Assembly: GCA_963804245.1 (NCBI GenBank)
Contig: CAWDPQ010000019.1
Location: forward strand, 70,949-134,948
From: an uncultured Acidobacteriota bacterium
GTDB taxonomy: Bacteria; Acidobacteriota; Vicinamibacteria; Vicinamibacterales; 2-12-FULL-66-21
Direction: 5' to 3'
Length of the DNA stretch: 64,000 bases
Translations under genes and position numbers: made by a program
The notes under the pieces: generated by a model
Databases searched by the model: none
Told to the model about the DNA's origin: nothing
What the model saw: only the letters and a program-made list of their open reading frames with translations
In this document: positions 2,726 through 56,597 of the stretch, one piece after another
Position numbering within the stretch: position 1 is the first letter of the stretch
Layout of the letters: each line of letters begins with the position of its first letter

Positions 2726-4405
2726 CTAGCGGCTGCGGAACAGGAGCACCCAATCGCCTTCCGCCGGCGGGTCGAACCGTACCGCCGTTTCGGCGCGGAT
2801 GCCCTTCGCCGCCGTACGGGCGCCGCTGCGCGGATTGAACCAGGTCGAACGTCCCCTCGGCATGCTCGCCGCTTTGACCGTGATCGCTTGCGCTTCGGGG
2901 GAATACATGACGGCGAGATCGCGTGTCTCGGATGCGGCGGCCGCGATGAACCTTGCCGGTGCACCGGTGCCGGGCTGCTCGGCCAGGATCGCCTGCGCCG
3001 GCCGCAGCCGCCAGAAATCGATCGATGTAAAGAGCGTTGCCAGGTGCGCCATCTGTTCGGCTCCGGGCATCACCAACGCCTGTTTCCACGGCAACGGCGT
3101 ACCGCTTCCCGGATGATCGGTCGGCGTCGTGGTCCCATCGTCCCAGCCCCACACACCGTGTCCGCCGTACGAGACGCCGGCAGTAGGAGCATTGAGCAGA
3201 CTCCAGTAGATGGCACGGCGGACCACACCGGGCGGGATGGGTTTCCGCGACTGATACGCCAGGTGGTACTCGTATGGCGGTTCGAGATTGATGAACGGCC
3301 GTATTGGCTCGATGGACCAGTCGCGCGACGGCGGTCCCTCCGTCATCCACGCGAGCGTCTTGTCGTCGTCGCCGTGGCCGCTCTGGTATCCGTGGATATC
3401 GATCCACGGTTCGTTCTGGAATTCGCGGAGCACCCAGTGCATGCCTCCCGGGTGGAGGACAACGGGCGCGTGACCTCCTTCGCCGAACACGGCGCGGCCG
3501 ATCCGTTTCCACTTTTCTGCTTTGTCTCCGCGGTAGTCACCGTCGCCGGGCAGAATCCAGACCACATCGTGCGCCTGCCAGCGCGCAACCATGTACTGCG
3601 CGAGCCGGATCGCCTGATCTTCCGGCAACGAGAAACCGGGATTGATCTTGGGGTTCGATCCGCCACCGATCGCCCAGAGCAGGACCGGCGCGCTCAGCAA
3701 ACCGGCGCGATTGAGAGCGGCGACTTTTGCGTCCAGCCGTTGAAAGAACTCCGGGTTGATGGCAATGCGGTCCTGTCCTGAGAAGGCCAGCTCGCGCAAT
3801 CGATCGCCTTCCGGCGACGCACGCCATTGAGTCGTGACCCACTGCACGGCAGTAAAACGCTGGCGCACTCGCTGGTCGACGTAATGCTGCCACTCGTCGG
3901 GTGTTGAGAGCAGCGCCGCATTCCAGCCGGTGTCGCACAGCCAGAAGAACGGCGTCCCATCGGCATGTTCGAGGAAGGTACGGCTGCGGGCCACGCGAAC
4001 CGGTCCGTGACGATCGAACCGCGTTTGACCTTTCGCTGCGACTACACGGAACGTGCCGGATTGCGCGTGGAGCCCGCTGTTCGATGCTGGAACAGCAGTC
4101 GTCGCGTACGTCCATTGGCCCGGTTCGTCCGGCGAGAAGCGGACGCGCCAGGTTGTGCCGCCGTCCCAGAAGCCAAGCACGGAACGCGTCTGCCGGGAAG
4201 GCGCGGTGAAAGTAACGCGCAGCTCGGTATCCTGCAGCGGATTGTCGGACGGCTGACTGCTCGTGAACGTCGCCTCGAAAATGCCCCAGCGCGGAACCTC
4301 TCCTTTTCCTTGAGCCGAAAGGGGCCAGGTCGCCAGCACTGCCGCGACCGCAAGCGAGCCGAGCGCAGACCATGCCGCCGTCAACGTTTTGCTGCGAGCC
4401 GCCAA
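2726..4405 (-). CDS. Secreted glycoside hydrolase, DUF4038/GH140-like barrel with DUF5060-like N-domain and collagen-binding-like C-domain
   Basis: ORF 2726-4780. Recognisable segments include WGIFEATFTS...WRVRFSPDEPGQWTY (Ig-like), TPFFWLCDTGWNA, IDIHGYQSGHG and VSYGGHGVWGWDDG. The 5' third of the track ORF overlaps the kinase gene. In-frame TTG 4405 gives the signal peptide MAARSKTLTAAWSALGSLAVAAVLATWPLSAQG; TTG 4384 (TTGA overlap with the kinase stop) is the alternative. Confidence 0.8.
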   Translation of the reverse strand: MAARSKTLTAAWSALGSLAVAAVLATWPLSAQGKGEVPRWGIFEATFTSSQPSDNPLQDTELRVTFTAPSRQTRSVLGFWDGGTTWRVRFSPDEPGQWTYATTAVPASNSGLHAQSGTFRVVAAKGQTRFDRHGPVRVARSRTFLEHADGTPFFWLCDTGWNAALLSTPDEWQHYVDQRVRQRFTAVQWVTTQWRASPEGDRLRELAFSGQDRIAINPEFFQRLDAKVAALNRAGLLSAPVLLWAIGGGSNPKINPGFSLPEDQAIRLAQYMVARWQAHDVVWILPGDGDYRGDKAEKWKRIGRAVFGEGGHAPVVLHPGGMHWVLREFQNEPWIDIHGYQSGHGDDDKTLAWMTEGPPSRDWSIEPIRPFINLEPPYEYHLAYQSRKPIPPGVVRRAIYWSLLNAPTAGVSYGGHGVWGWDDGTTTPTDHPGSGTPLPWKQALVMPGAEQMAHLATLFTSIDFWRLRPAQAILAEQPGTGAPARFIAAAASETRDLAVMYSPEAQAITVKAASMPRGRSTWFNPRSGARTAAKGIRAETAVRFDPPAEGDWVLLFRSR

Positions 4406-5564
4406 AATTGTCCTTCGTTGAGAAGCGTGATTCGATGTCCCTTTTCGCGCAGCCGCTTGATCTCCATCAGCTTCAGCCCGCCCTCCTTGCCGGCGGCCTG
4501 CTGCGGGTTGGGACGGCCGCGAACGACGACCGTCGTGCGCGCCGACGGCATCCCATGGACGATGGCACCGGCGCGACGGGCCGCAGCCATCGCGTCGCGC
4601 CGTTTGCGCGTCAGAATTCCCGTGAATGCCAGGTGCACGCCCTTCAGCGTGCGGAGGATGCCGGCGTGCAGGGCGGCCGGAGGGTTGCGCAGCGCGTCGA
4701 TCAACTCGTTGGCGCTTTCGTAGCGCTTCCGCCGCTCGCCGATACAGCGATAGATGATCTCTTTCAGATGATCGCTGCACGCGAGCGATCGCACCTCATA
4801 GGGACGAACGCGCGTACCCGCATCGCCCTTTACCAGCATGCCAAGCAGTTGCCCGACCTGATAGACGTCGTCTCGCGTCTGCCACTTGGGTGCGGCACGG
4901 TCGAGGATGTCGCTCGGCGCCGTCATGGCGTTCAAGGTTCGCGCGGTGATGCCGCGGGTATCGCTCTGCTGACGGGCGATCCCGAAATCACCGAGCTTGA
5001 GCCGGCGACCATCGCACACGAAGATGTTGAGCGGAGTGAGGTCCCGGTGCAGCGTTTGTCCCCGATGGAGCTTGCCGAGGACATCGAGAATCCCGGCGAT
5101 CTCCCGCCGCGTCGTCGTTTCACTCCATCCTTTGCTGTCGCGGCTGAGGAACGCTCCCAGATCGCCGTGACGCGCGTATCGAGCGTCAGACAATACAGCA
5201 CGCGTTCGCCGCTGCTGCTGTGCGTGGGGAAGAGGGGAAACGCGTCGAACACGCGGATGGCGCGTGGATGACCGTCCAGGAGCCGACCGAAATACGCCTC
5301 GCGCAGCCAGCTGTCGATGTGCTGGCTGACTTTGATGCACACCGTATCGGGCACATCGGTGGATCGCCCAATACGCTCCGCGAGATAGACCTGTCCGAAT
5401 CCGCCTTCGCCGAGCAACTGCTGGACGCGGTAGCGCAGCCGCGTCTCCGGGCTGACGATGACCTGCGCCTCCTCGAGCAGTTGGCCGTGCCTTCGGCGCG
5501 TTCCCACGGTTCTCGCCGTCCGCGTCGTTGCGTCAGGTGGATGTAACCGAAGGGTAACGGGCAA
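4381..5564 (-). pseudogene. Ser/Thr protein kinase with C-terminal BRCT domain; frame broken once (~5179), which may be a sequence error
   Basis: The N-lobe (LLGEGGFGQVYLAER...VCIKV) is in the frame of ORF 4932-5792. The catalytic loop, DFG and BRCT (HRDLTPLNIF, LGDFGIA, GVHLAFTGILTRKRRDAMAAARRAGAIV...LLNEGQFWRL) are in the frame of ORF 4381-5340. Restoring one A in CTC-GA(A)-TAC gives a continuous ..VLYCLTLEYARHGDLGAFL... Start is in-frame TTG 5564 with AGGAG 6 nt upstream. Confidence 0.8.
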
Positions 5565-5662
5565 CGTCAGCTCCTGGGTTTGAATTATTTCATTAGTCGG
5601 CGCGGCCTGCCGCGCCGCTAGCGGAGCGGAGCTGGCGCTGAAGCTTAGCGGAGGCGGGCTGG

Positions 5663-7958
5663 CTAGAATCGCAGCAACCGGGTTAGTTTGACCGTCAGCC
5701 CGCGATTGGTGAGCGTGGGAAATCCGCTCTCGAGCGTGTCGCGGCCATCGCTGTAGACGATGAACAGCTCGCTCAGCGGGCGGTACTCCCACCGGAATCG
5801 CACGTTGGTGGTGACCAGGTTGCTGGTCGAGTTGTACTGAATGAGCGCCGCGGTCAGCATGCGCGGCGTGAACGATAGCGTCGCACGTCCGCTCAGCAGC
5901 GTTGCAATGAAGTGTTCTGTCGGCAGGTTCACCCAGTTGAGCGAGATGCCCGGTTCGACTGAGAGTCGTGACGTCAGCTCTGCGCGTCCGCGATAGGCGA
6001 GATCGGTGCGATCGCCGTCGTAGAACGTTCCGTAGGCGGCGCTGACGTCGCCCGAAATCCGGCGCTGAGTGCCGAGCGTGTAATTTCCGCGCACGGTCGG
6101 AGAGTGATAGGCCCCGGCTGGTACGAACGTGCCGGGCACAATCTCGAACGGGTTGGCCAGGAACTCGAAGTCGCGGCTGTAGCCGACGCTCCAGGTGTCA
6201 CCGTTCTGCAGCTCCGTTCTCACCCCGATGCGCGCCTGCCGGTTCTCGAGGTCGCGATCGCCGTTCGTGATGTAGTCGAGCGCCCCTTCGTAGTTGATGC
6301 GGCGCACCGATTGCCAGGTCTTCGGCCTTCGGCTGATGCGCAGCTGCGCCAGCGTCTCGATGAAGTCGGTACGGCGAAGGAATCCCACCTCGGGCTTGAA
6401 GTTCCTGCCGACCGCGAGTTGTTCGACCTGTACACCGAGTCGATCCGCGTCGTAGTCGAAGCGCGCCCGGTAGCTGTGATCGTCGCCGCGAAACCCGGGC
6501 GTGCGCGATCCGGCCACGTAGCCGACGATGTTGACGCTCTGGAAAAAGGAGAGGTTGGCGTCGACGCCGAGCACGAGGTTGTCTTCGGGGCCGACCGGGT
6601 TCGGAACGTCTGAAGTTGCCGCCCCCGCGGCGCGATTGGTGCCGATGAACCCGATGTAGCTTCGCCGCAGAATGTCCCGCTTCAGGCGAACGACACTGAA
6701 GTTCGTCGACGTCGTGCGCGCCTCGCGGCTGTCATCGGTCTGGATGTCGAGCAATCCGATGCTGTATCGGCCCGCCTTGCCGGTCAATCTGCCACCGGCT
6801 TCGATCGGGACGGCACGATTTCCGCTCAGTCCGATGCGGCGGCTGAAGAAGAGCACCGGCGTATTGACCGGCGCTGACGTCGCCGCGCCGGTGGGTGGAG
6901 TCGTCGTCGCACCGCCAAACGCAAACAGCCCCTGGCCCTCGAGGAAGAAATCGCGCTTTTCCGGGAAGAGGAGGCTGAAGCGTGTGAGGTTGACCTGCTG
7001 GTCGTCGTCTTCAACCTGTGCGAAGTCCGTGCGATAGGTGAAGTCGCTGGTCAGGCTCTGCGTGATGCCGTACTTGACGTCGAATCCGGCATTTCGATCG
7101 AACTCGGTTCTCGAACGCCGGATCGAGCGCGCGGTCTGCCTTGACGCCGCCAACGGCGTACGGTTTGACGTCGAGATTGAGCGCCGCCGGCGGTGCTTCG
7201 AGGCCGACGAGCGTTGCGGCTTCCGAGAACCGGAGGATCCCTCGCGCTCCATACTGGCGCGGCACCGGGCTCAGATATGAGAGCTCGTTCTTCCAGCGAA
7301 CGTTGCGGCGGATGTTGATGCCCCACTCCTGCGGCCCGCTCCCGCGATATCTGAGCGAACGGAAGGGAATCGCCATCTCAACGGTGAAGCCTTCGGCATC
7401 GCGGCGACTGCGCGGCACCCACACCGTATTCCAGTTGCGATTGGCGTCGCGCTCGTCGGTAACCTGCGTGTCCCACGCGCCGCCGATAGAGTTCATCAGG
7501 AACTCGTAGCCGTTGCGGCGATCGTGATACGTGTCGATGACGACGCTCAGGTTGTCGTTCTGACTGACGTTGCTGCCGTCGCGGCGCATGTCGTTGGCGA
7601 CGATGCGGTGCGGCTGGCTGTCGCGGCAGCGCGCCGCGATGTAGATGTTCTTGTCGTCGAACATCAGCCATACGAGCGTCGGCTCCGTGGCCAGCTCGCC
7701 TTCATGCGGATCCTGCTGAATGAAGTCGGTGATGGCGGGAAGGCGTTGATAGAGGGCCTCGTCGAGGATCCCATCGATGCGCGGCACGTCCTGTTCGGAT
7801 ACGCGGATGGCGCGCACCGTGACCCGCCCCTCACTATCGCGCCCCTTGACCTGCAGAGACACGACCCCAGGGTTGCTCGAATCCTGAGACGCCGCCGGTC
7901 GTGATGGGAAAACGATCAGCGCGACGAGGAGCGCGCCGACCACAACGGGGAAGCTCAC
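5663..7958 (-). pseudogene. DUF5916 / carbohydrate-binding-family-9-like secreted protein; frame broken once (7101-7110)
   Basis: The N-terminal part is in ORF 7011-7958 (signal MSFPVVVGALLVALIVFPSRPAASQ; IDGILDEALY...NIYIAARC...). The remainder is in ORF 5663-7252 (FDVKYGITQSLTSDFTYRTDFAQVEDD... ending LTRLLRF). The junction ..DPAFENR|TEFDRNAGFDVKYG.. needs a 1-nt correction. Confidence 0.75.
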
Positions 7959-7976: not shown

Positions 7977-8020
7977 GAGCGCCGAGCGCCGAGCGCCGAG
8001 CGCCGAGCCCCGAGCCCCCC
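7977..8020. repeat. Tandem heptamer array (GAGCGCC)x4 degrading to GAGCCCC/GAGCCCCCC
   Basis: Read directly from the sequence. It lies 19 nt upstream of the DUF5916 start codon. A related array is at 63488-63525. Confidence 0.9.
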
Positions 8021-8185
8021 AGCCTCCGCTAGCCTCGGCGCGGCCAGGCTCGCCGAGCACACGCTGCGCGCTCGTCGCTCCGCATTCGCGCTCGCTCGGG
8101 CCGCAGGCGCTGGGCACGCCGGTTGAAGGAAGCGGCGGCACTCCTACGCAGGGAACACCCGTTCCGTTCGTGACGCGGTCCAGTC

Positions 8186-9301
8186 GTGGCACGCGGGGAG
8201 GCGGAAACCGGTGGGTTTTCTGGCATTTTCGACGTAACAGCTGTTGCCTTCATCCTCGTGGACCGCCGTGATAGTAGGCTGGTCGAAGGAGCTTATGTGG
8301 GCAGCCGCGGCTGGGATCTGACGACGGGCGGCGGCGGAGCGGCAGGGGAGATCGACCTCAACGGCACGCCGGCGCAATATTTGTCGACGAGCCGCCAGCG
8401 CGATCAAGCCGTAATCGATTTCCTGAGCGCCAACGTCGCCAATCCGTTCCGCGGTCTGATTCCCGGCGTCGGCATCAACGGCAACATCACCCGCGCGCAG
8501 TTGCTGCGGCCCTATCCGCACCTCCTCAACGTCCGCACCTGGAACTCCGACGGCACCAGCAGGTACAACTCGGCGCAATTCAAGATCGAGAAGCGCTTCA
8601 CCCGCGGCTACACGCTGCTCGCCGGCTACACCTGGTCGAAGTTCACCGAGCGGGTCTTCCAGCTCAATCCGGGCGACACCACGTACGAGGAGCGGTTGTC
8701 CGAAGCCGACGTGCCGCATCGGCTCGCGGTCAGCGGCATCTGGGAGCTGCCCTTCGGACGCGGCCGCCACTGGGCCAGGGACGCGGGCGGATTGCTCGAC
8801 GCGGCGATCGGTGGATGGAGCCTGCAGGCCATCGGCCAGATCCAGAGCGGCCGGCCGATCAGCTTCCACGACCGGAACATCTACTTCAACGGCGATCTGG
8901 GCGCGCTGAAGACCGGCTTTACGGGCGACTCGAGGAATCCGGTGTTCGACATCAGCGGCTTCTACTTCAGCGATGCGGCGGTGATGACCAACGGGCAGCT
9001 CGATCCGGCGAAGCAGCGAGCGGATCAGCGCATCCGGCTGGCCAACAATATCCGTTACTTCCCGTCGCGCGTGCCCGGCCTGCGCAGCCAGCCGCTGAAT
9101 CTTTGGGACATCTCGCTGGTGAAACAGGTGCGTTTCGGCGACCGCCTGCGCGCGCAGTTCCACGTCGAGTTCCTGAACGCCTTCAACAGTCCGGTGTTCA
9201 GCAATCCGAATACCAATCCGACGAAGGCCCACTTCGGACGGGTGACGAGCCAGGGGAACCTGCCGCGCGACATCCAGCTCGCGGCGAAGATCCTGTTCTA
9301 G
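8186..9301 (+). pseudogene. 5'-truncated TonB-dependent receptor remnant (only the C-terminal ~330 codons of a ~1100-codon family)
   Basis: ORF 8186-9301 aligns by eye with the C-terminal third of the receptor at 17259-20671 ([66 protein letters not shown], final ILF). There is no plug or N-domain, and only ~230 nt of repeat-rich non-coding DNA lies upstream. Confidence 0.7.
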
Positions 9302-13124: not shown

Positions 13125-14718
13125 GGAGATCAGGAGCCACAGATTTCTCCTGATTGGCTTTCGTTCCACGGCGCCGCTCATTTTCATCGCGCTCTGGACG
13201 GCGGCCGTCGTTGCTGGCATTGTCGCGGTCCGCGGTCTGACGTGGCCGTACGATGTCGATGGTCTTCGCGACATTGCCATCGCTCAGGCGATTCGCGACG
13301 GCCGCTCGCCGCTTGCCGATCCTCTCTATCAAGGCCACGCCGCCTGGTACAGCCCGCTGGTTCCCGCCATCGTTGCTCTCGTCGCCGCGGTGACCGGAGC
13401 GAGCGTACCGGTCACCTACGTACAGGCTGGCGCGTGGCTCAATGCGCTCGCACCGATCGCATTCTTTTTCTGCGCACGCGTGCTCGTCGGCGTCTGGCCG
13501 GCGCTCGCCGCCACGTGCGCCTTTCTCTTCCTTCCCGGCCGTCCTCCGGCATGGGCCAGCGCTACCTATTCGCCGTGGCTCTTTCCAGCTCTCTTTGCGC
13601 AGGCGTTGCTCTATGCCGGCCTGGCATTCTGGACGACCACACTGGATCGGGCGAAGCCGTATCGTCTCGTGCTGTCGGGCCTGATCCTCGCTCTGACCTT
13701 TCTCGCGCATAGCGGCGCGGCGGCGCTCCTTGGCGGGATCATGATGATCACGGCGTGGAGCGCAGGAGGATTCGGGCCCACACCGGTGCGCCGGCTCACT
13801 GCGCTCGTGGTTCCGCCGCTCGTCGCCATCGCTGTGTCCTTACCGTTTCTCCTGCCACTCGCACTCCAGTACGGTTTGCGCGTCGTGAATCGTGTGCCCG
13901 GTACCTGGATTCACGAGGCGACGCAGCCCGAGGCGATCGTGGCCGGACTCTCGAGGCCCGGCGCGTGGCTGCATCTGGCTCTCGTCGCACTTGGGCTCTG
14001 GTGGATCGCGAACCGGGTGCGCGCGACGCCGAAGATCGTCCTGACCGCATGGCCAGTCGTCGCGGCATTCCTATACGGTTACAGCGTCCTGGCCCAGCGT
14101 TTCGAATGGCCGGCGATCGTTCCCGCGTATCACTTCTATTTCATGCTGAGGGGATGGAAGTGGGTCGTGTTCGGGTGCGGCCTCATCGCCGTCGTGGATG
14201 TCGTCGTCCGGCGGTGGAATGCACGCGGCCGCCATCCCATTCCTGCCGAAGCCGCGTATGCGGGCATCGTGATTCTGCTCGCCGTCGCGGTATACCCGCG
14301 TTACCTGGGACGCGAGGCTTTCAAGAATGCGCGGACCCTGTCACAGCAATTGGCGGCCGACGAGGAGCGCAGCTTGCACGGCTGGATGCGAGAGCATACG
14401 GATCCGACGAGTGTCTTTCTCGCGTCGGACAACGATGCGCTCACACTCGTCGGGCCCGCCGGACGTTCGGTCGTGTGCGTGGCTTCGAGCTTTTCGAACC
14501 CTTACGTGGACCACATGGTGCGGGCAACGGCCCGAGACCGGATGTTCCACGCACTGGTGGATGGAGACGGCGAGGCATTCGACGCGATTGCGACGCGAGT
14601 TCGGCGTCACCCACGTTCTGGCGCGCGATCGGCAGGTCGGACAGCTTGCGTCTGCATCCGGAGCTCGTCACGAGAGGCTTTCTCGGCGGGTTCCGTTACC
14701 GTGTTCGAGGTGCGATAA
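13069..14718 (+). CDS. Polytopic membrane protein, possibly a GT-C (ArnT/PMT-like) glycosyltransferase; the last ~40 codons may be frame-scrambled
   Basis: ORF 13036-14718 has at least 10 hydrophobic helices followed by a soluble tail. ATG 13069 gives a basic N-terminus before TM1. Near 14590-14680 a second frame reads a more family-like ..EFGVTHVLARDRQVGQL.., suggesting indels. Function is a low-confidence guess. Confidence 0.5.
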   Translation: MAGSRRARRAPCRNPQEAREIRSHRFLLIGFRSTAPLIFIALWTAAVVAGIVAVRGLTWPYDVDGLRDIAIAQAIRDGRSPLADPLYQGHAAWYSPLVPAIVALVAAVTGASVPVTYVQAGAWLNALAPIAFFFCARVLVGVWPALAATCAFLFLPGRPPAWASATYSPWLFPALFAQALLYAGLAFWTTTLDRAKPYRLVLSGLILALTFLAHSGAAALLGGIMMITAWSAGGFGPTPVRRLTALVVPPLVAIAVSLPFLLPLALQYGLRVVNRVPGTWIHEATQPEAIVAGLSRPGAWLHLALVALGLWWIANRVRATPKIVLTAWPVVAAFLYGYSVLAQRFEWPAIVPAYHFYFMLRGWKWVVFGCGLIAVVDVVVRRWNARGRHPIPAEAAYAGIVILLAVAVYPRYLGREAFKNARTLSQQLAADEERSLHGWMREHTDPTSVFLASDNDALTLVGPAGRSVVCVASSFSNPYVDHMVRATARDRMFHALVDGDGEAFDAIATRVRRHPRSGARSAGRTACVCIRSSSREAFSAGSVTVFEVR

Positions 14719-14734
14719 GGCGGTCCGTCAGCGC

Positions 14735-41432: not shown

Positions 41433-41472
41433 CGGCTCGTCGTAGGTCGTGACCACGGGCCGGACCTCTTCA

Positions 41473-41679
41473 TCAAGGCACCACGGGTGGCGGAGCGGGA
41501 GACAGGGGAGCCGAATCGTTGCGACCGTCCTTTCTGAACGAGCCGACGAATGCATCGAATGCGTCGCTGGCGTCCTTACGTCGTTTGCGAGACTGTTCTA
41601 CCTCGATCCGGAGGCGTTCGAGCTTGTCCTGCGCAGCCTGTTCATCGAACGGCGTGTAGGTGTAGTGCTCGCCGGCCAT
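41473..41679 (-). CDS. 68-codon charged/coiled-coil ORF ending in a double stop, immediately upstream of the DUF4115 gene (it could be its detached N-terminus)
   Basis: ORF 41473-41679: MAGEHYTYTPFDEQAAQDKLERLRIEVEQSRKRRKDASDAFDAFVGSF... ends TGA TGA. No family recognised. Confidence 0.35.
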   Translation of the reverse strand: MAGEHYTYTPFDEQAAQDKLERLRIEVEQSRKRRKDASDAFDAFVGSFRKDGRNDSAPLSPAPPPVVP

Positions 41680-43429: not shown

Positions 43430-43450
43430 GCACGTAGCACGTAGCACGTC
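43430..43450. repeat. Short heptamer array GCACGTA GCACGTA GCACGTC
   Basis: Same unit as the arrays at 33.4 and 50.5 kb. It lies between the hydrolase stop (43456) and the response-regulator start (43414). Confidence 0.85.
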
Positions 43451-44676: not shown

Positions 44677-44805
44677 TGAGTCTCCTGTCTACTAATTACT
44701 TAGTTGATAGTAGACGAGCTGTCAAGGCGCTGGGACCTTCGAACCTTCCGTCTACCACCCTGCAACACTCGGGTAGTAGTCTGCGTAAGCTCTAAGAGAG
44801 AGGAC

Positions 44806-45412
44806 GTGGGCCATCCCGATCGATCTCGAGACGGTCACCGAAAGCCGACTCGTCGCAGAAGCTCTGGCTGGTTCCCAATCGGCATTCGAACAGATCGTCC
44901 GGCGTTACCAGCGGCCCGTCATCAGCCTCATCGTCCGCATTCTGGGGGAGAAGGGTGATCGTGCGACGGCTGAGGATCTCGCTCAGGAGACGTTCGTCAA
45001 GGCCTACCTCAAGCTCGCGGCGTTCGACACGACGCGGCGCTTGTCGAGTTGGTTGTTTCGAATCGCACATAACACCGCCATCGATTCGCTGCGCCGGGCG
45101 CGCGTGACGCTCGTGTCCGTCGACGATCCGGCCGCGGATCCCGAGATTCAAGGCCACTTGCCGACCCCGCCGACTCCGCCCGATCCCGTAGAAGCCGAGG
45201 CGCTTGGCCGCGCTATCCACAAGGCACTCAACGCCTTGCGCTATGAGCATCGGGTAGCGGTCATGCTGCGCTACGAGGAAGGCCTGCCGTTCGAGGAGAT
45301 CGGGCAAGTCCTTGGCGTGCCTGAAGTCACGGCCAGGTCGTTCGTCCACCGTGCCCGCAAGCAACTGGCTGAGCTCCTGACGGCCGGCGGCTGGCAGCCC
45401 TCGGGCGCATGA
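44806..45412 (+). pseudogene. ECF (sigma-70 family, group IV) sigma factor; frame break within the first codons (extra G in GTG-GGC, 44808-44810)
   Basis: Regions 2 and 4 are continuous from 44807 (AIPIDLETVTESRLVAEALAGSQSAFEQIVRRYQRPVISLIVRIL...FRIAHNTAIDSLRR...RARKQLAEL), but this frame has no start codon. GTG 44806 (GAGAGG 4 nt upstream) is one base out of frame. Confidence 0.8.
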
Positions 45413-45470: not shown

Positions 45471-45992
45471 ATGATGGACGACAACCTCAATCGCAGCTAT
45501 CGGCGATGGCACGCGGCAGAGGACTCCGGCCGCGACGATGAGGCGGATGCCGAGCTCAGGACCCTCTTCAGCACCGTGGTCCCGCAGCCCGTTCCAACCA
45601 GCGATTTCACTGCGCGGACGATGGAGGCGGTGGCCGCCGCCGCGGCCCGCGAAGTGCGTCACGCCCGCCGCGTTCGCAGGGGCGTCATCGCCGGCGGAAC
45701 GGTCAGCGCCGTACTCGTGGCGTATTTCGGATCCGGCGTGTTTGTGGGTTTCGGCTCGGGACTCGTTGCGCGCACCGTCGACCTCCTCATTGCGATGGTC
45801 GTGAGGATGGCCGGCGCCGCACAGACCGGCGCGGACATCTGGTCCGTGCTGTCGAGCATGGGGAGGACGGCGGCAGCGGTCGCCGCCGATCCGACGGTGA
45901 CAGTGATGCTGTTTGCGCTGCAGGCGATCGCGCTCGCCGCGCTCGTGGCTCTGCAGCGCCTTCTTGGCGTAGATGAGGAGTCGCTCAAATGA
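45471..45992 (+). CDS. Putative anti-sigma factor / membrane protein
   Basis: ORF 45471-45992. Cytoplasmic acidic N-part, then 3-4 hydrophobic helices. Called from its position after the ECF sigma gene and its 4-nt overlap with the next gene. Confidence 0.5.
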   Translation: MMDDNLNRSYRRWHAAEDSGRDDEADAELRTLFSTVVPQPVPTSDFTARTMEAVAAAAAREVRHARRVRRGVIAGGTVSAVLVAYFGSGVFVGFGSGLVARTVDLLIAMVVRMAGAAQTGADIWSVLSSMGRTAAAVAADPTVTVMLFALQAIALAALVALQRLLGVDEESLK

Positions 45993-47287
45993 AGCGATGG
46001 ACATTGATTTTCGTAGCGGCGGCGCTCGTCTCGGTGGCGATCATTCCCGCTCTGGCGCAGAGCATCCCGGCCGACCATCGCGACCTCCGCTCCCGCATCG
46101 AACAGCACTATGAGGTCGTTCCCTCGTCGAACGCCATCGCGCTCGTTCCCAAGAGTCGCGAGCGCGACATTCGACTGATCGACATCTCGGAGGGCGTGAT
46201 CGCCATCAACGGCGTCACGGTCACCGGCAAGGAGCTGCGCGACCGGCTGGGGGACGACGCCGATCTCATCATCCGACTGTCGTACCTGACGGCCGACCAG
46301 CGGCGCGACCTCTTCACACTCCGGGCCGAAGCCGATCCGCGGCGAGGCCGGAGCCCGGGCGATCAGGGAACGAGGCGCCGTTCGTCCGGCGAGCGCGTGC
46401 GGATTTTCGGTAACGTCACCATCGACGAGGAAGAAGAGATCGCCGGTGAGGTCGTTGCGGTCATCGGATCGGTGCGGGTCAACGGCGAGGTCCATCAGCA
46501 GGTGGTGGCCGTGCTCGGCTCGGTCGATCTCGGACCCAAGGCCTACGTGCGCGGTGATGTCGTCAGCATCGGCGGCAGAGTCCGGCGCGCACCCGGATCG
46601 CAGATTGGCGGAAGCATCACGGAAATATCGCTCGGGGGTGCCGCCGCGCACCTGAACGCGCCGTGGATGGGCCCGATGACCGTGGAAGGCTTTGATGCCG
46701 TACCGCGTTTGTTTCTCAGCACGTTTCGTCTGGTGCTCCTGATGCTGATCGCCGGCATCGCTTATGTCGTCGCGCGTGGCTCCGTCGACGGCTCGGCGCT
46801 GCGCGCCAGCGACAATGCGCCGAAGGCGCTGCTCGTCGGACTGGCCGCCGAGCTCCTGTTTGCACCCGTGCTGGCGCTGACGGCCGTTCTCCTCGCCGTG
46901 TCGATCATCGGCATCCCGCTGATCCTGTTGCTGCCGTTTGCCGTGCTCGTCTTGATCCTGCTCGCGCTGGCTGGTTTCACGGGCACGGCGGTCGCTATCG
47001 GTCAGGCCGCGCGACGACGCTTCGGGATCGCCGGCGAACAGGGCTTCCTCGACGTCGTCGTGGGCGTGCTGATTATCCTGTCGCCGGTGCTCATCGGCCG
47101 GATGCTGGCGCTTGCCAGCTGGCCGGACAATCCTTTCACGTGGGCTACTGATCCTGACCGGCACCGGGTTCGAGTTCCTGGCGTGGACGACTGGCTTCGG
47201 CGCGGTGCTGATGAATACGTTCTCGCGCTGGCGCGCGCGCCGGGTTGCGCGTGCCACGCCCAGTGCGACAGCGTGAAGAAAGGATGA
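45989..47287 (+). CDS. Secreted/membrane protein with a bactofilin-like (polymer-forming, beta-helical) repeat region and C-terminal TM bundle; the last ~45 codons are probably frame-shifted
   Basis: ORF 45989-47287. VRIFGNVTIDEEEEIAGEVVAVIGSVRVNGEVHQQVVAVLGSVDLGPKAYVRGDVVSIGGRV. After ~47145 another frame reads a further TM helix ..LLILTGTGFEFLAWTTGFGAVLMNTFSRWRARR.. ending at 47276. Confidence 0.6.
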   Translation: MKRWTLIFVAAALVSVAIIPALAQSIPADHRDLRSRIEQHYEVVPSSNAIALVPKSRERDIRLIDISEGVIAINGVTVTGKELRDRLGDDADLIIRLSYLTADQRRDLFTLRAEADPRRGRSPGDQGTRRRSSGERVRIFGNVTIDEEEEIAGEVVAVIGSVRVNGEVHQQVVAVLGSVDLGPKAYVRGDVVSIGGRVRRAPGSQIGGSITEISLGGAAAHLNAPWMGPMTVEGFDAVPRLFLSTFRLVLLMLIAGIAYVVARGSVDGSALRASDNAPKALLVGLAAELLFAPVLALTAVLLAVSIIGIPLILLLPFAVLVLILLALAGFTGTAVAIGQAARRRFGIAGEQGFLDVVVGVLIILSPVLIGRMLALASWPDNPFTWATDPDRHRVRVPGVDDWLRRGADEYVLALARAPGCACHAQCDSVKKG

Positions 47288-47317: not shown

Positions 47318-47355
47318 CTCCTTTCTTCTCATCGGCCCGTAACGCCTCGACGGGA

Positions 47356-50046
47356 TCATCCGCATCGCCCGTCGGGCGGGCAGGTAGCAGGCGAGGTCGC
47401 GACCAGCAGCAGTAGCAGAGGCACACCCGCGATTGTTGGCGGGTCGACGGTGCCGATTCCGTACAGCTCGGTGGCCAGGAGCGGCTGCAGGACGGCGGAC
47501 GCCGCCAGGCCGAGGATGACTCCCAGGACTGCAAGCCAGAGCCCCTGCAGCACGATGACGCGCAGGACGTGTGCCGGCTGGGCTCCCAGCGCCAGTCGGA
47601 TTCCAATCTCCGAGGTTCGCTCGCTGACGATGAGCTCCATGACGCCGAAGACGCCGACGGCGGCCATGATGAGGGCGAGGGCGCCGAAGGTGCCGACGAG
47701 CATGAGGATGAAGCGCCGTTGCGAGACGGATTCCGCGCGTACCTGCGTCATCGGCCGGACGTCGTAGGCGGCAATGTCCTTGTCCACGGCGCGCAGCGTC
47801 GAGCGCACTTCCGGAATCAAGATCGACGGCTCGGAGGTCGTGCGCAACACGATGAACGGATTCACCGGCGGATTCTGCAGGTAGTAGATGTAGGCCTCGG
47901 GTGACGGCGGCGCTTCCAGCCCACGATGTCTGACGTCGCCGATGATGCCGACGATCGTCGACCACGTGCCACCCGGGGCACCGAACTGCAGGCGCTTGCC
48001 GATCGGATCCTCGCCGCGAAACATCTGGCGCGCCATCGTTTCGTTGATCACGACCACGGGCGGCGCGGACGGGCCGTCATTCACGTCGAAGGAGCGGCCG
48101 CGCAGCACTCGAATACCCATCGCGCTGAAATAGTTGTGAACGGCGCGGCGGAACTCCACCTCGGGGAGATCGGCCGGGGCCAGGTTCCGGCCTTCGATCA
48201 CCACCTTTGTCGAGACGTTGGTGCTGCCGAGCGGAAGACGTGTGGTTCCTCCGACAGCGACGACCCCAGGGAGCGACTCGAGCCGGCTGAAGAGATTGGC
48301 ATAGAACGCCCGCCGGTGGTCGGGCGTAGCGTATCGCGGCGGCACGGTGATCTGCAGCGTCAGCAGGTTGTTCGGACGAAACCCCGGATCGACCGTGAGC
48401 ACCGACACGAAGCTGCGCAGGAGCAGGCTGGCACCGATGGTGAGCACCACGGCCAGTGCCACCTCCACAACGACGAGGCCGGCGCGCAAGCGGCGCTGCG
48501 CGCGGCTGACCGACGAACTGCGTCCCGACTCCTTCAACGCGGCCTGCACGTGCGAGCGCGATGCGGCGAATGCCGGAACGAGGCCGATCAGCGTGCCGGT
48601 GAGCAGCGAGAGGCCGAAGGTGAACGCGACCACCGCACCGCTGGGCGCCACTTCGTTGATTCGCGGAATCTCCGGCGGCGCGAGCGCGAGGAGGGCAGCA
48701 ATGCCGAGACGCATGAACACCAGCGCCGCGATGCCTCCGACGAGCGACAGCAGGATCGTTTCGACGAGGGTCTGCCGAACGAGGCGGCGGCGGGCGGCGC
48801 CGAGTGCGGAGCGGATGGCCATCTCCCGCTGCCGGCCGGTGCTGCGGGCGAGCAGCAGGTTGGCCAGGTTCACGCACGCCATCAGCAGCACGAACCCGAC
48901 GCCGGCGGTCAGGAGCAGCAACGCGGGACGGACGCTGCCAACCGTCTGCTCGTGCACGGGAACCACGTTCGCGCCGACAGCGCGGTTGGTGTCGGGAAAA
49001 GCCTCGGCCAGCTGCCGCGCGATGCCGGAAACCTCCGCCTGTGCCTGATCCACCGTCACGCCCGGCTTCAGACGTCCAACAGCCGCCAGGAAACGCGCTC
49101 CGCGCGAGAGCGTGGCCACACCCGTCACCCGCGAATCCTCTTGCACGAATGCCAGCGGCAGCCATGCATCCACCTGGAACGCCCGCGTAAATCCGCTCGG
49201 TCCGAGCATCGTCCGATAGGGAAACACGAAATCGGGCGGCATGACGCCGACGATGGTGCGGGGTTGAGACTGGATGTTGAGCACCCTGCCGATGACGTTC
49301 GGGTCGGCGCCAAGCCGGGACTGCCAGAATGCATGGCTGATCATCACGGCGGTGTTTTGATCAGTGTCCGTGAAGGTGCGGCCGAGCACGGGCTGACGTC
49401 CGAGCATCTCGAACGTGCCGGGTGTCACCACGCTGACGACGACCTGCTCCGCCCCGGCGCTGCCCGTCAACGTGGACGGAACGAGGAAGCCGTATGTCGC
49501 GTGTAGCCCGGAGAAGGCCGAAGCGGCCCGGAAATCGATGAAATCACGCGGCGCGACGGTGTCGCGATCGCGATGCTCCATCGCGTTGGTGCTCCACAGC
49601 ATCACCAGCCGGTCCGGATCGCTGTAGGGGAGCGGCTTCAAGAGCACCGCGTGGACGATCGTGAAGATCGCCGTGTTGGCGCCAATGCCGAGCGTCAGGG
49701 CGGCAACCGCCAACAGGGTAAAGACCGGATTGCGGGCGAAGATGCGCGAGGCGTAACGCGCATCGAACATGAGCGACTGCCACCACATTGGAGATCTCCC
49801 TCGAGGATCGTGAATCGAGCCTGAAGGTTCGGGCCAGAGAAATCGATCGCGGATCTGCGCGGCGTGCACGAGCGTGGCGTTCAGGAATACATCGACGACG
49901 CTGCGCAGGACACATGCGGCCACCGACCGCGGTCCGCGCGAGGCGGCCGCACTGACGCGCTCGGCCCACGCCTGTTCCATCGCAGCGCCGAAGCGGCGGC
50001 GGAACGACCGCGGGTAGGCACGCAGGAGCAGCCGGTAGAACCTCAC
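47356..50046 (-). CDS. ADOP-family ABC-transporter permease (PadR-associated); the last ~20 codons are scrambled by three 1-nt indels (corrected stop ~47329)
   Basis: ORF 47356-50046, 896 codons; the start overlaps the PadR stop (ATGA). The family-typical tail ..LACYLPARRAMR.DPVEALRA. is present but spread over three frames between 47400 and 47329. Confidence 0.85.
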   Translation of the reverse strand: MRFYRLLLRAYPRSFRRRFGAAMEQAWAERVSAAASRGPRSVAACVLRSVVDVFLNATLVHAAQIRDRFLWPEPSGSIHDPRGRSPMWWQSLMFDARYASRIFARNPVFTLLAVAALTLGIGANTAIFTIVHAVLLKPLPYSDPDRLVMLWSTNAMEHRDRDTVAPRDFIDFRAASAFSGLHATYGFLVPSTLTGSAGAEQVVVSVVTPGTFEMLGRQPVLGRTFTDTDQNTAVMISHAFWQSRLGADPNVIGRVLNIQSQPRTIVGVMPPDFVFPYRTMLGPSGFTRAFQVDAWLPLAFVQEDSRVTGVATLSRGARFLAAVGRLKPGVTVDQAQAEVSGIARQLAEAFPDTNRAVGANVVPVHEQTVGSVRPALLLLTAGVGFVLLMACVNLANLLLARSTGRQREMAIRSALGAARRRLVRQTLVETILLSLVGGIAALVFMRLGIAALLALAPPEIPRINEVAPSGAVVAFTFGLSLLTGTLIGLVPAFAASRSHVQAALKESGRSSSVSRAQRRLRAGLVVVEVALAVVLTIGASLLLRSFVSVLTVDPGFRPNNLLTLQITVPPRYATPDHRRAFYANLFSRLESLPGVVAVGGTTRLPLGSTNVSTKVVIEGRNLAPADLPEVEFRRAVHNYFSAMGIRVLRGRSFDVNDGPSAPPVVVINETMARQMFRGEDPIGKRLQFGAPGGTWSTIVGIIGDVRHRGLEAPPSPEAYIYYLQNPPVNPFIVLRTTSEPSILIPEVRSTLRAVDKDIAAYDVRPMTQVRAESVSQRRFILMLVGTFGALALIMAAVGVFGVMELIVSERTSEIGIRLALGAQPAHVLRVIVLQGLWLAVLGVILGLAASAVLQPLLATELYGIGTVDPPTIAGVPLLLLLVATSPATCPPDGRCG

Positions 50047-50411
50047 GCCGGCCCTCCGCGGAGCAGCCGGCGCGCACGGGCCGTGCTGAGCTGTCCGGCG
50101 AGGCGTTCGGCCTCGGCGCGGGCGACGGCCAGGCCGAGCGGCGTCAGCTGGTAGTAGCGCCGCCGCTGGTCGTCGACGTCGGGTGCCGGGCGATCGTCGA
50201 TTTCCTGAATCAGCCCCGAGTCGAGCAGCCGGCCGAGCGCGCGGTAGAGCGTGCCCGGGTGGAGGACGATCCGCCCTTCGCTGCGGCGTTCCACCTCCTG
50301 CATGATGCTGTAGCCGTGCTGATCTCCCGCCGCCAGCGCAATCAGGATCTCGAAAGCCACCGGGGTCAGCGGCAAGAAGCGTTCAACGTCGGCGGAAGAT
50401 CGGGGGCGCAT
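50043..50411 (-). CDS. PadR-family transcriptional regulator
   Basis: ORF 50043-50411. LIALAAGDQHGYSIMQEVERRSEGRIVLHPGTLYRALGRLLDSGLI winged helix. Confidence 0.9.
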   Translation of the reverse strand: MRPRSSADVERFLPLTPVAFEILIALAAGDQHGYSIMQEVERRSEGRIVLHPGTLYRALGRLLDSGLIQEIDDRPAPDVDDQRRRYYQLTPLGLAVARAEAERLAGQLSTARARRLLRGGPA

Positions 50412-50419: not shown

Positions 50420-50620
50420 TACGCTACGTGCTACGCGCTACGCGCTACGCGCTACGTGCTACGTGCTACGTGCTACGTGCTACGTGCAACGTGCTACATA
50501 CCACGTGCGACTGCCAGCAATAGCACGTAGCACCTCGCACGTTGCCGACGTAGCACGTAGCACGTAGCACGTAGCACATTGCACCTCGCACGTAGCCGAC
50601 TATACGCCTTGGGCGTATAG
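50420..50620. repeat. Large inverted heptamer arrays (GCTACGT/GCTACGC)x~11 and (AGCACGT)x~9, plus a 9-bp hairpin CTATACGCC-ttg-GGCGTATAG
   Basis: Left arm 50420-50510, right arm 50522-50597 (its reverse complement), hairpin 50600-50620. It occupies almost the whole divergent intergenic region between padR and the FMN dehydrogenase gene. Confidence 0.9.
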
Positions 50621-50665: not shown

Positions 50666-51868
50666 ATGCCTGACCTTTCACAGATGGTGAACATCGCGGA
50701 TCTCCGGCGTGCGGCCAAGCGGCGGCTGCCGCGAGCGGTATTCGACTACATTGATGGCGGCGCCGACGCCGAGTTCACACTGCACGAGAACTGCGCGGCG
50801 TTCGACCGGATCACGTTCAGGCCGCGGTGCGCCGTGGCGACGGCGTCATGCGACTTGCGGACGACCGTTCTGGGGAGTCCGATCGCTTTTCCGATAATTC
50901 TGGGTCCTGTCGGCAGCAGTCGAATGTTCTATCCGCGCGGCGAGGAAGAGGCGGCGCGCGCCGCCGGAGCTGCCGGCACGCTCTACACCCTCTCGACGCT
51001 CTCCGGGTGTAAGCTCGAGGACGTCCGCAAAGCGACGTCGGGACCCGCGTGGTATCAGGTCTACCTCTGTGGCGGACGGGACGTGGCGACCGGAACGATC
51101 GAGCGGGCGCGGCAGGTCGGCTATTCCGCGCTGGTCCTGACGATCGACACACCGGTGGCCGGTCTGCGCGAACGGGACGTGCGAAACGGGGTCAAGGAGC
51201 TGCTCGGGCGTCAGATCGCCGGAATCCCTCACGTCTGGCAATTTGCCTCGAAGCCGCTCTGGCTGGCCGCGTTTCTGCGCGACGGCGGCCTGATGAAGTT
51301 CCCGAACGTGGTGCTTCCCGACTCTGGACCGATGTTGTACGCGGACGTGGGCGCGGCGCTCGAGCAGTCGATGGTGACCTGGGACGATCTCCGCTGGATC
51401 CGGCAGATCTGGGATGGGCCGATCGTGGTCAAGGGCGTTCACATCGCCGAGGATGCCCGCCGCGCCGTCGGCGAGGGCGCCGACGCTATCGTCGTCTCGA
51501 ACCACGGCGGGCGGCAGCTCGACGGCGTACGGTCGACCATCGAGAGCCTGCCGGAGATCATCTCCGCGGTTGGCACGCGCACCGAAGTTCTGCTCGACGG
51601 GGGCATCCGCCGCGGCAGCGATGTCGTCAAAGCACTGACTCTTGGCGCCCGCGCCGTCATGATCGGGCGAGCCTATGCCTATGGCCTCGGCGCCGTCGGC
51701 GGGGCAGGGGTCACGCGCGCGCTGGAGATTCTGCGAGCCGACGTGGTCCGCACGATGAAGCTGCTCGGCTGCGGCTCGATCGCCGAGCTCAACGCTCCCA
51801 CATCGACATTCCGGCGGGCTGGCGGCACGGCGCGGACCGGCCAGCCCGTGGGAGAAAAATTCGCTTAG
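50666..51868 (+). CDS. FMN-dependent alpha-hydroxy-acid dehydrogenase/oxidase (L-lactate dehydrogenase / glycolate oxidase family)
   Basis: ORF 50636-51868; ATG 50666 is preferred (MPDLSQMVNIADLRRAAKRRLPRAVFDYIDGGA). SNHGGRQLD and GGIRRGSDVVKALTLGA motifs. Confidence 0.85.
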   Translation: MPDLSQMVNIADLRRAAKRRLPRAVFDYIDGGADAEFTLHENCAAFDRITFRPRCAVATASCDLRTTVLGSPIAFPIILGPVGSSRMFYPRGEEEAARAAGAAGTLYTLSTLSGCKLEDVRKATSGPAWYQVYLCGGRDVATGTIERARQVGYSALVLTIDTPVAGLRERDVRNGVKELLGRQIAGIPHVWQFASKPLWLAAFLRDGGLMKFPNVVLPDSGPMLYADVGAALEQSMVTWDDLRWIRQIWDGPIVVKGVHIAEDARRAVGEGADAIVVSNHGGRQLDGVRSTIESLPEIISAVGTRTEVLLDGGIRRGSDVVKALTLGARAVMIGRAYAYGLGAVGGAGVTRALEILRADVVRTMKLLGCGSIAELNAPTSTFRRAGGTARTGQPVGEKFA

Positions 51869-53545: not shown

Positions 53546-53975
53546 TTACCCACCCTTTTCACTTACAGGTTCTAGCGGGTGGGAGATGTGACCTTGAACG
53601 ATGAGCCACTGGGCTCGCATCTTCCGCCACAACCAGGACACGCCACCCTGCTGCCGTATGGTTGTTCCGGCGCCTTCCATGACGATTTCGCGCTTGAACG
53701 TCGCACTCGCCAGCGCGTACTGCAGAGCCCAGTGGTGAGACCTCAAGGTCCGCATACGTCACGTCCAGGGATCGCACCGCTGGAAGAGCCTTGCGCACGC
53801 CCGCTGCCATGACGTCATGAGTCGCACGCCGACCGTCGTGGTAGAAGTAGAACTCGGGCACGGATGCGTAGTGGGCGACAAGCCCCTCGGGGTCGCGTGC
53901 ACGCTCGACAGCCTCGAACGATCGCACACGAGCGGTTACCGCCGCTATGACCTCCTCTCGTTCTGAATTGTCCAT
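53546..53975 (-). pseudogene. DUF4440/SnoaL-like (NTF2-fold) protein; one frame break (53735-53745)
   Basis: The N-part is in ORF 53559-53975 (..VTARVRSFEAVERARDPEGLVAHYA..LDVTYADLEV). The C-part is in ORF 53546-53755 (..HHWALQYALASATFKREIVMEGAGTTIRQQGGVSWLWRKMRAQWLIVQGHISHP). Confidence 0.65.
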
Positions 53976-54398: not shown

Positions 54399-54429
<31 letters not shown>

Positions 54430-55187: not shown

Positions 55188-55420
55188 GGACGCTTCCCGG
55201 GCGGAGAGTATAAGCCGGTCCAGCTGCCTTGGGTATATGTCAGGCGCACCGCCACAGCTCGACGGCCTCGTTTCGTTTTCCGGATGTCTGTCTACGACAC
55301 GGGCCACAACATCCCGCGTCCGGACCTGGTCAGGGAGTCGCTGGGCTGGTTGGACACATACTTGGGCAAAGTGCGCGAGTAGTTACGCGGCACGGAGTAC
55401 CGAGGTTGTTGTTTCAGGCC

Positions 55421-56597
55421 CTACGAATCTTTTTTCAGCTCGCGGATTTTCTTCTCCGCGCTCTCCTTGATCGCGGCGCGGAATTCGTCTGGGGCCGACG
55501 TATCCCTACCCAGAACCTCGAGCGCTTTTTCCGCGTTGTGCAGCGCCTCTTTGCGGTTGCCGGCGGCGAGGAGCGCATCCGACAGGCTGTCGTACGTGTT
55601 TGCGGAGTTGGGATAGGTGTCGACGTTCAGCTGAAACAGCCAGACCGCGTGTTGCGCGGCACCGGCCTGGAGAACCTGGTAGCCGTAGGCGTTCAGCTCA
55701 CCCTCCGGAAAGAGCACGAGCTTCGGATCGCGGCGCTTCGTTTCCTCGAGCAGCTTCAGCGCCCGCTCGCGGCCATCCGGTTTCGCGAGCACGTTCCAGA
55801 ACACCTCGAGCGATGAAGGGCGGCGGCCGATGTCGTGACGGGCCGCAGCGAGGCACTTCGAAGATGTGCGTCGAACCAGTCGAGCATGGCGGGCTCGAGG
55901 CCCTTTTCTGCCGCAAACATCTCGGTGCCATGTCCAGCGGCGTTGTATTCGATGAACTTGTTTGCGGGGTTGCTCGACCAACCGAGAATCCACAGCATCG
56001 TGTTCACGGCGTCGCCATCCCCCTGACTTGCGGAGGCGAGGATCGGCATGCCCGCCGACTTCCTCAGGTGCTCCCGCGCCGGCGGCGTGACACCTCCACT
56101 CAGTAGGACGATGGTTCGTACCTTCCGGATGACGCCGCGAGAGCAGCACGGCCTGGTTCACTCCGCAGCTCGCGCCGGCCGCCCCTATCGCGTTCACGAT
56201 CGACGCCAGGCTGCGCCGTCAGCCACGCAAATGCTGCATCGACGTCACCTGGCCATTTCTGGTCGATGACAGGCTGGCGCTCCTGGAACGTCGTGAATCG
56301 CTCACCATCGCTCTCCCCGAAGCCGCGGTAGTCCATGGCGATCACGTGGTAGCCGCGCTCGGCGGCCCGGCTCGCAAAGGCGGTCCACGACTGCCGATCG
56401 CGATTGCACTGATGCAGCAGGACGATCCCCGGTCCGGGCTTGCCGGCGGCGTAATACGTTGCCTTCAGCTTTGCTCCGTCGGAGGCGGTGAGGGTTACGT
56501 GCGCAGGCGCCGGCGGCTGCGCGGTCGCCTCTCCGCAGGCGATCCAGCTGACGGCGAGTACCAGAACCGCGCGAAGATGACACTGTGACAGGCGCAT
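55421..56597 (-). pseudogene. Secreted alpha/beta hydrolase (dienelactone-hydrolase/prolyl-oligopeptidase-like) fused to C-terminal TPR-like helices; three frame breaks
   Basis: ATG 56597 with signal MRLSQCHLRAVLVLAVSWIACGEATAQ. Segments GIVLLHQCNRDR..YHVIAMDYRGFGES (ORF 56100-56654), IGAAGASCGVNQAVLL (ORF 55421-56197 frame), VRTIVLLSGG..MPILASASQGD..AGHGTEMF (ORF 55756-56049 frame), then the TPR tail (ORF 55421-56197). Breaks are near 56193, 56121 and 55819. Confidence 0.7.

Follow-up and report, generated by a model that had tools for sequence, protein, structure and literature searches.

The question raised by this stretch of DNA is whether its many interrupted reading frames are broken in the organism or only in the sequence as deposited. 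The stretch, termed here the window, is 64,000 nt of contig CAWDPQ010000019.1 (assembly GCA_963804245.1) from an uncultured Acidobacteriota bacterium. Twenty-nine frame-changing events are found in it, approximately 18 insertions and 11 deletions, each of 1 nt. Comparison with related sequences indicates that the frame breaks are very probably residual 1-nt consensus errors of a long-read-only metagenome assembly and that the genes are intact in the organism. Almost all of the breaks would then be a data-quality problem and hold no biological feature. An earlier note on this DNA had favored a consensus or polishing artefact over pseudogenes, and this is borne out: the indels are private to the window, sibling assemblies carry different sets, and short-read contigs carry none.

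The window appears to be part of a 194.5-kb contig representing a soil Vicinamibacterales (Acidobacteriota) population. It has a G+C content of 64%, and an Rfam scan of it gives no match. Among species representatives, those closest to it are metagenome-assembled genomes (MAGs) of Vicinamibacterales and further Acidobacteriota, many of them from the Microflora Danica (MFD) series; the best representative match is a GMC oxidoreductase with 87% amino acid (aa) identity. GTDB representatives and Joint Genome Institute (JGI) metagenomes yield orthologues of only ~80% nt identity, which are helpful for the TonB-dependent receptor gene but not for other genes. A public protein collection contains exact copies of eight of 10 intact window proteins, all on a single NCBI/ENA contig of 194,514 bp. 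The PadR protein (window 50043–50411) is found unchanged on 22 contigs; siblings were reached via 10 of these 22, and further loci via cluster members. The siblings consist of 10 long-read assemblies of the same species (ENA assemblies ERZ25039469 to ERZ25039591, contigs named contig_N and up to 497 kb in length), whose loci are syntenic with the window and 95–99% identical to it. Short-read relatives of the same lineage, with 93–95% identity, are JGI Ga0604591_0001214, the Ga0604638 contigs and the ENA "HuB_farmland" scaffold. The relatives combined cover 57 kb of the window.

Private indels were counted as indels of a length not a multiple of three, situated in coding runs and found in one assembly only, where at least three assemblies cover the position. 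The 10 long-read siblings show 83 of these in 188,028 nt (54 insertions and 29 deletions, nearly all of 1 nt). The rate per sibling ranges from 0 to 1.24 per kb, and each sibling has its own, different set. In the short-read contigs there are none in 46,356 nt, although these sequences are more divergent; at the long-read rate about 20 events are expected (P ~1e-9, hand arithmetic). With private sets in the long-read siblings and none in the short-read contigs, the breaks thus go back to the method of assembly. Sibling gene calls are also fragmented where the window is intact, e.g. the TonB receptor is found in four pieces in L171, ILVD is split in L162 and L169, and DUF5916 is in three pieces in L182. 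Fragment proteins from L161–L174 and L182 are present in public protein collections.

Other tests of an artefact point in the same direction. The repaired frames are otherwise intact, with normal purifying selection after the TonB breaks; the indels occur in a single assembly and are missing from independent assemblies of the same population; and private indels of a comparable kind are found in other assemblies of this technology and in none from short reads. Of the 29 breaks, 26 are missing from all or nearly all of the covering relatives. The exceptions are 14783 and 20296, which are shared, and 56196, which no relative covers. At the DUF4142, histidine kinase, membrane-protein and ADOP-tail sites, the relatives that lack the indels include short-read contigs. 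In short-read relatives the broken genes are called as single open reading frames (ORFs) at the repaired length: dehydrogenase-cytochrome c 584 aa, TonB receptor 1135 aa, DUF4142 188 aa, kinase sensor 345 aa, ADOP 906 aa and membrane protein 426 aa. Window-private 1-nt indels are found in intergenic DNA as well, e.g. at 17229, 28549, 47318 and 53520.

That the frames do break is seen by several routes. A Viterbi path through a codon-usage model, trained on ORFs with consistent third-position G+C (GC3), gives same-strand frame switches without an intervening non-coding state at ~5160, 7107, 15583, 16628 and 19984, and likewise at ~20291, 21883, 42083, 55869 and 56151; the remaining same-strand switches are ordinary gene boundaries. 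In three-frame reading the protein carries on in another frame at all listed sites but two. Frames were joined by hand and the repaired proteins scanned against Pfam. A single Pfam stretch crosses the junctions in both kinases, DUF5916, the TPR unit, DUF4142 and the hydrolase, and weakly in DUF4440. One high-scoring segment pair (HSP) with intact homologues from the fetched loci extends across the junctions in each of DUF5916, the histidine kinase, the twin-arginine (Tat) signal of the TIM-barrel gene, the ADOP tail and STK-TPR, for which it takes in the last 17 residues. Alignments with local paralogues also run through the Tat signal and through the STK-TPR and ADOP tails. Thus the statement that the same protein family continues in another frame holds, and near-identical sibling assemblies pin the events to single bases.

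One group of insertions lies in the TonB-dependent receptor gene on the plus strand.

19984–20307, plus strand: TonB-dependent receptor, C-terminal 230 codons, five 1-nt insertions
19984–86, 20185–88, 20199, 20261–62 and 20296, plus strand: positions of the five insertions

The earlier note had placed breaks here; the breaks are present, but there are five insertions and not four, as the one at about 20200 consists of two insertions 14 nt apart. A metagenome scan gave 25 JGI contigs with ~80% nt identity as orthologues, to which L003 was added. In alignment with these 26 orthologues the five insertions are private to the window. The 25 JGI orthologues show no private indels; the L003 locus begins partway into the region and shows only missing columns at its truncated end. 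The insertions at 19984, 20188, 20199 and 20261 are each missing from 3/3 siblings as well as from the 26 orthologues. The insertion at 20296 is common to ERZ25039536 and ERZ25039591 and is not found in ERZ25039494 or in the 26 orthologues. No further indels are found elsewhere in the 3.4-kb gene, and the repaired frame contains the terminal stop only. When the repaired window gene is compared with five orthologues, the ratio of nonsynonymous to synonymous substitution rates (dN/dS) is 0.11–0.18 upstream of the first break and 0.15–0.22 downstream, with the same values in controls between orthologues. Five indels without further decay are not the picture of an old pseudogene.

The remaining breaks are as follows.

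5176–5181 (site 5178), minus strand: Ser/Thr kinase gene, 1-nt deletion, GA[A/G] to GA, supported by 2/2 relatives
7102–7106 (site 7104), minus strand: CBM9/DUF5916 gene, 1-nt insertion, 2/2 relatives (not in L171 or L182)
14780–14790 (site 14783), minus strand: STK-TPR gene, C-terminal tail, frame change shared with ERZ25039536
15576–15580 (site 15578), minus strand: STK-TPR gene, TPR region, 1-nt insertion, 1/1 relative (not in L182)
16645–16649 (site 16647), minus strand: STK-TPR gene, directly after DFGLAK, 1-nt insertion, 1/1 relative (not in L182)
21866–21868, plus strand: glucose/sorbosone dehydrogenase-cytochrome c gene, 1-nt insertion, missing from 4/4 siblings
27981–28280, minus strand: DUF4142 gene of 190 codons, six 1-nt indels
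27981, 27999 and 28155, minus strand: the DUF4142 deletions, 3/3 relatives each, two of them short-read
28096, 28247 and 28278, minus strand: the DUF4142 insertions, 3/3 relatives each, two of them short-read
37084–37087 (site 37086), plus strand: xylose-isomerase-like TIM-barrel gene, Tat signal, 1-nt deletion, two long-read relatives
41473–41477 (site 41475), minus strand: RodZ_C-domain gene, 1-nt deletion, 8/10 relatives have the extra G
42086–42089 (site 42087), minus strand: histidine kinase gene, between HisKA and HATPase_c, 1-nt insertion, missing from 10/10 relatives
47144–47146 (site 47145), plus strand: membrane protein gene of 426–428 aa, 3′ end, 1-nt insertion, missing from 13/13 relatives
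47331–47399, minus strand: ADOP/MacB-FtsX permease gene, last 25 codons, three 1-nt deletions at 47334, 47357 and 47395
51790–51796 (site 51792), plus strand: FMN-dependent dehydrogenase (FMN_dh) gene, hypervariable C-terminal tail, 1-nt deletion, 10/10 siblings
53722–53726 (site 53722), minus strand: DUF4440/SnoaL-like gene, 1-nt insertion, missing from 4/4 siblings
55818–56202, minus strand: alpha/beta-hydrolase-TPR gene, 1-nt deletion at 55819 and 1-nt insertions at 56098 and near 56196

At 5178 the extra base is A in one sibling (L182) and G in another (L171), and the Pkinase hidden Markov model (HMM) spans the repaired junction at aa 100. The DUF5916 HMM stretch 261–349 crosses aa 284, and the repaired protein aligns with the L009 ORF in one HSP over 6–762. 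In the repaired STK-TPR protein the Pkinase stretch 9–260 crosses aa 155 and the TPR_17 and TPR_11 stretches cross aa 508; its tail, ...WDRL followed after the break by RSDPRFDALLRRIGLPR and the stop, agrees with a paralogue tail, and the frame change at 14783 is present in L182 too. A related JGI contig carries the dehydrogenase-cytochrome c as one 584-aa gene, equal in length to the repaired product. For DUF4142, where L173 was left out of the alignment, two short-read JGI contigs carry an intact 188-aa gene and the HMM is matched from 3 to 136 of 138 positions (E = 1.5e-35) in one stretch across the six junctions. An extra C at 37086 in L172 and L173 restores MQTALDRRTLLKNAAF, and in two JGI contigs a 9-nt variant that keeps the frame occupies this position.

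In the RodZ_C gene the N-terminal 67 aa and the rest are in different frames, as judged by translation against the intact 236-aa product of L175. The 10 relatives without the histidine kinase insertion include two short-read contigs, and siblings call an intact 345-aa gene. Three short-read contigs are among the 13 relatives that lack the insertion at 47145, in a protein with no Pfam match. The three ADOP-tail deletions are supported by 8/13 (47334), 13/13 (47357) and 12/13 (47395) relatives, with short-read support of 3/3 at each, and the repaired tail agrees with the paralogue tails ...LACY.PARRA...DP..ALR.E*. The deletion at 51792 appears moderately supported, as the alignment there is ambiguous. 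Siblings call an intact 142-aa DUF4440 gene, and a weak DUF4440 stretch crosses aa 82. In the hydrolase gene 55819 and 56098 are supported by 2/2 siblings each, while the insertion near 56196 is placed by Pfam, from a Peptidase_S15 stretch (62–169) that crosses aa 133 and 157.

The list of about 30 breaks in the earlier note therefore stands for the most part, with 27 of its sites confirmed. A putative break in an ECF sigma gene (44808–44810) is refuted by 12 relatives, and a possible break at 14590–14680 falls where there is no coding signal or homology. Two breaks had been overlooked, 41475 (RodZ_C) and 51792 (FMN_dh tail). The DUF4440 and hydrolase breaks are present, but the true positions are 53722–24 and, for the middle hydrolase event, 56098. 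The labels "bactofilin-like" (45989–47273) and "kinase-BRCT" (4384–5480) are not backed by Pfam; the protein at 45989–47273 has no Pfam match and that at 4384–5480 matches kinase families only (E <= 0.01).

The breaks are not evenly spread. In 500-nt bins the variance-to-mean ratio is 2.83 (P < 0.001), 11 inter-break gaps are shorter than 100 nt against 1.4 expected (P < 0.001), and the patches so formed are 65–320 nt long. Sibling errors cluster as well: 29 of 81 have a neighbor from the same assembly within 100 nt (7.6 expected), and 15 lie near window breaks (4.2 expected). At six or more of nine inspected deletion sites the missing base sits at a strain-variable column, e.g. A/G at 5178, G/T, C/A and G/A in the ADOP tail (47334, 47357, 47395), and G/A and C/A at the DUF4142 deletions 28155 and 27999. 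If ~10% of columns are variable, six or more of nine by chance has P ~6e-5 (hand calculation). Length polymorphisms of 9–10 nt are found directly beside the breaks at 37086 and 41475.

Several other local features were considered. GATC, as a site of Dam-type methylation, lies within 10 nt of 12/28 window breaks (7.1 expected, P ~0.03); over 110 indel sites the effect is gone (16 vs 13 expected, P = 0.23) and this cause is rejected. Homopolymer slippage as the main cause is rejected also, as run lengths at the indels are like background. The earlier observation that most repairs fall in homopolymers of 1–3 nt is thus trivial, runs of 1–2 bases being present at roughly background proportions. 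Local GC at the breaks does not differ from that at random positions. The 4-mer AGTA/TACT is found within 5 nt of 10 of the 110 window and sibling indel sites (2.4 expected; P = 1.7e-4 uncorrected), which with 136 tests is borderline after correction. Position 58674, which resembles a window-private frameshift, is in fact a genuine in-frame 9-nt polymorphism. Genuine in-frame strain length polymorphisms of 9–10 nt are situated at or beside the apparent frameshifts 58674, 41465–41475 and 37086.

Thus the suggestion that the breaks are not random is correct as to clustering, but their proposed concentration in motifs of multi-copy gene families is unsupported by conservation percentiles or by self-comparison. 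The percentiles at the five TonB sites, from 14 full-length orthologues, are 0.79, 0.08, 0.14, 0.65 and 0.77, and the C-terminal region of the receptor is not more conserved than the remainder of the gene. Self-comparison of the window and the fetched loci shows no paralogous DNA similarity at the breaks. The apparent link to conserved motifs is probably one of ascertainment: without tools, a break is visible only where the protein is recognizable.

The errors may have arisen as follows. The assembly would be a Nanopore one made with Flye and one Medaka round, unpolished by short reads, on the pattern of the Microflora Danica long-read project. That study describes Flye assembly of Nanopore reads with one Medaka round and reports that microdiversity limits recovery (PMC12313526). 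A near-finished R10.4 consensus needs ~40-fold coverage (PMC9262707). The consensus step would drop or add a base where reads of co-occurring strains disagree, giving rise to patches. Whether strain disagreement among the reads produces the clustering into 65–320-nt patches is an evenly balanced matter. Co-assembled strains, the second cause named in the earlier note, are plausible and fit the clustered errors, the siblings' errors nearby and the deletions on variable positions.

Some points weigh against this explanation. The changes at 14783 and 20296 are common to independent long-read assemblies. Six sites (5178, 7104, 15578, 16647, 55819 and 56098) are covered by just one or two siblings, and 56196 by none. 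Classic Nanopore errors have a different spectrum: those here are insertion-biased and show no preference for homopolymers. The link between the ERZ assemblies and Microflora Danica is presumed from contig naming and the nearest MAGs. The idea of a strain mixture comes from few alignments and a rough hand calculation, and the placement of gaps beside mismatches may inflate the count.

If the breaks are instead recent genuine pseudogenisation, one strain has lost about 15 genes via single-base frameshifts. The breaks do stand in the deposited sequence and are consistent on three-frame reading, 14783 and 20296 recur in other assemblies, and a 2.65-kb truncation of a second TonB receptor could be a real deletion. 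Yet up to six indels are found in one 570-nt gene with no in-frame stop and a full-strength Pfam score, and downstream of the TonB breaks there is neither raised dN/dS nor nonsense codons. Apart from 14783 and 20296 the lesions are not inherited among relatives and none is in short-read contigs; private sets differ from one long-read sibling to the next, 46 kb of short-read sequence has no such indel, and similar private 1-nt indels lie in intergenic DNA. All events are of exactly 1 nt and insertion-biased, which is unlike natural indel spectra. Loss of the genes in the organism is thus very improbable. About as improbable, if marginally less so, is the paralogue mechanism favored in part by the earlier note, in which reads or conversion tracts from paralogous genes corrupt the most conserved motifs. 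In its favor, many of the broken genes are from families present in several copies in Acidobacteria (kinases, TonB receptors, ADOP permeases, DUF4142), and motifs common to a whole family are found at the ADOP tail and the DFGLAK site. The five TonB sites are not unusual in conservation, however (percentiles 0.08–0.79), and no break shows intra-window DNA similarity in a search that comprised the window and fetched loci, not the whole genome. Breaks are also found between genes, in a hypervariable tail and in genes that match no Pfam family, while other members of the same families are intact, e.g. the ADOP gene at 1–2661 (part within the window) and the 1236-aa gene at 33501–37211. Long reads span whole genes, which would make mis-mapping over 20-nt motifs unlikely, and recognition of breaks by eye is biased to conserved motifs.

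Programmed ribosomal frameshifting or phase-variable contingency loci would account for the presence of frame changes and for nothing more. The sites are not kept in relatives 95–99% identical, no common slippery motif or k-mer is found at them (the best 4-mer is borderline, as above), the indels lie outside long homopolymers and simple repeats, and as many as six changes fall in one small gene; this alternative is scarcely credible.

A few lesions deserve separate treatment. The changes at 14783 (sequence context GGGATTTT) and 20296 (context TCCGATCC) are either systematic errors or real alleles. A further lesion, not a 1-nt event, is found in another receptor gene.

Junction 7978–8276, gene 8174–9298, plus strand: remnant of a second TonB-dependent receptor, last ~370 codons only

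The window is without a 2.65-kb segment at 7978–8276; the two sides meet at an AGT microhomology, where one additional A is present. L171 and L182 contain the full receptor region of ~3.5 kb with a gene of 1183 aa. The 2.65-kb gap may reflect a true deletion in the strain or a collapse of the assembly. That this minority (14783, 20296 and the 2.65-kb truncation) comprises true loss-of-function alleles that segregate in the wild in a Vicinamibacterales population, while, separately, the artefactual indels mark strain-variable positions, is a tentative proposal and rather unlikely as a whole.

The ECF sigma gene (44802–45406, plus strand) raises a different matter. The putative break at its start (44805–44812, plus strand) contains no indel, as 10 long-read relatives and two short-read ones carry the very same sequence. 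The stretch 44786–45041 is without an ATG, GTG or TTG start before region 2, and this start-less frame is seen in all 12 relatives, short-read included. Gene callers shorten the product to 102–156 aa or call a 207-aa antisense ORF. A non-canonical start, e.g. ATC at 44813, is possible.

Apart from the breaks, the window and its siblings differ in repeats and in gene content. Intergenic tandem arrays with units of 7–8 nt are found at 33357–33492, 50423–50596 and 43430–43449, and also at 7977–8015 and 63481–63525. The units are ACGTGCT/GCACGTC, GCTACGT/TAGCACG, GAGCGCC and GCCCCCGA. The arrays at 33.4 kb and 50.5 kb are paired in opposite orientation with a mutual identity of 72–79%, and tandem-array copy number varies widely among siblings. 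Gene content differs among siblings in window 13135–14723 and at ~52–56.5 kb, and at positions 2000–9000 of L161–L170. Alternative contents there consist of alginate lyase and FG-GAP genes, kinase-FGE-sulfatase, GSDH, methyltransferase and the hydrolase-TPR gene. The dehydrogenase-cytochrome c gene (20669–22420) is absent between the same neighbors in the more distant L086.

As deposited, about 15 of the approximately 55 window genes would be annotated as fragments or pseudogenes, though they are almost certainly intact in the organism. The same mis-annotation is found in the sibling assemblies, at ~0.3–1.2 frameshifts per kb of coding DNA. Frames should be corrected or the sequence polished before such MAGs serve for studies of gene content or selection, for counts of pseudogenes or for protein databases. 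The pile-up of errors at strain-variable positions could aid polishing tools, if reads confirm it. Should it be true that artefactual indels mark strain differences, clusters of frameshifts in Nanopore MAGs would flag hot spots of microdiversity without recourse to reads.

In comparison with known systems, the window resembles bacterial frameshift pseudogenes in that frames are interrupted and homology continues. Unlike these, its breaks are without decay, are not shared among close relatives and are missing from short-read contigs. A likeness is seen to the collapse of co-occurring strains (microdiversity) when metagenomes are assembled (PMC12313526; PMC8302730): variants of the species, 95–99% identical, are present in many samples, several window deletions fall where strains vary, and error-prone patches recur from one assembly to the next. 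What these two papers describe for microdiversity is fragmentation and lost MAGs; a statement that it yields 1-nt consensus indels was not found in them, and that link is proposed here. Homopolymer-length errors are given as the commonest residual type in PMC8812927. The window events differ from those in not being of homopolymer length, in being insertion-biased and in lying in patches of 65–320 nt. Gene-fragmenting Nanopore indels are expected at less than ~40-fold coverage without short-read polishing (PMC9262707; PMC12007338). It is these errors, the object of IDEEL-type protein truncation tests, that the window breaks are like: 1-nt indels split ORFs, and the breaks depend on the assembly and disappear in short-read data.

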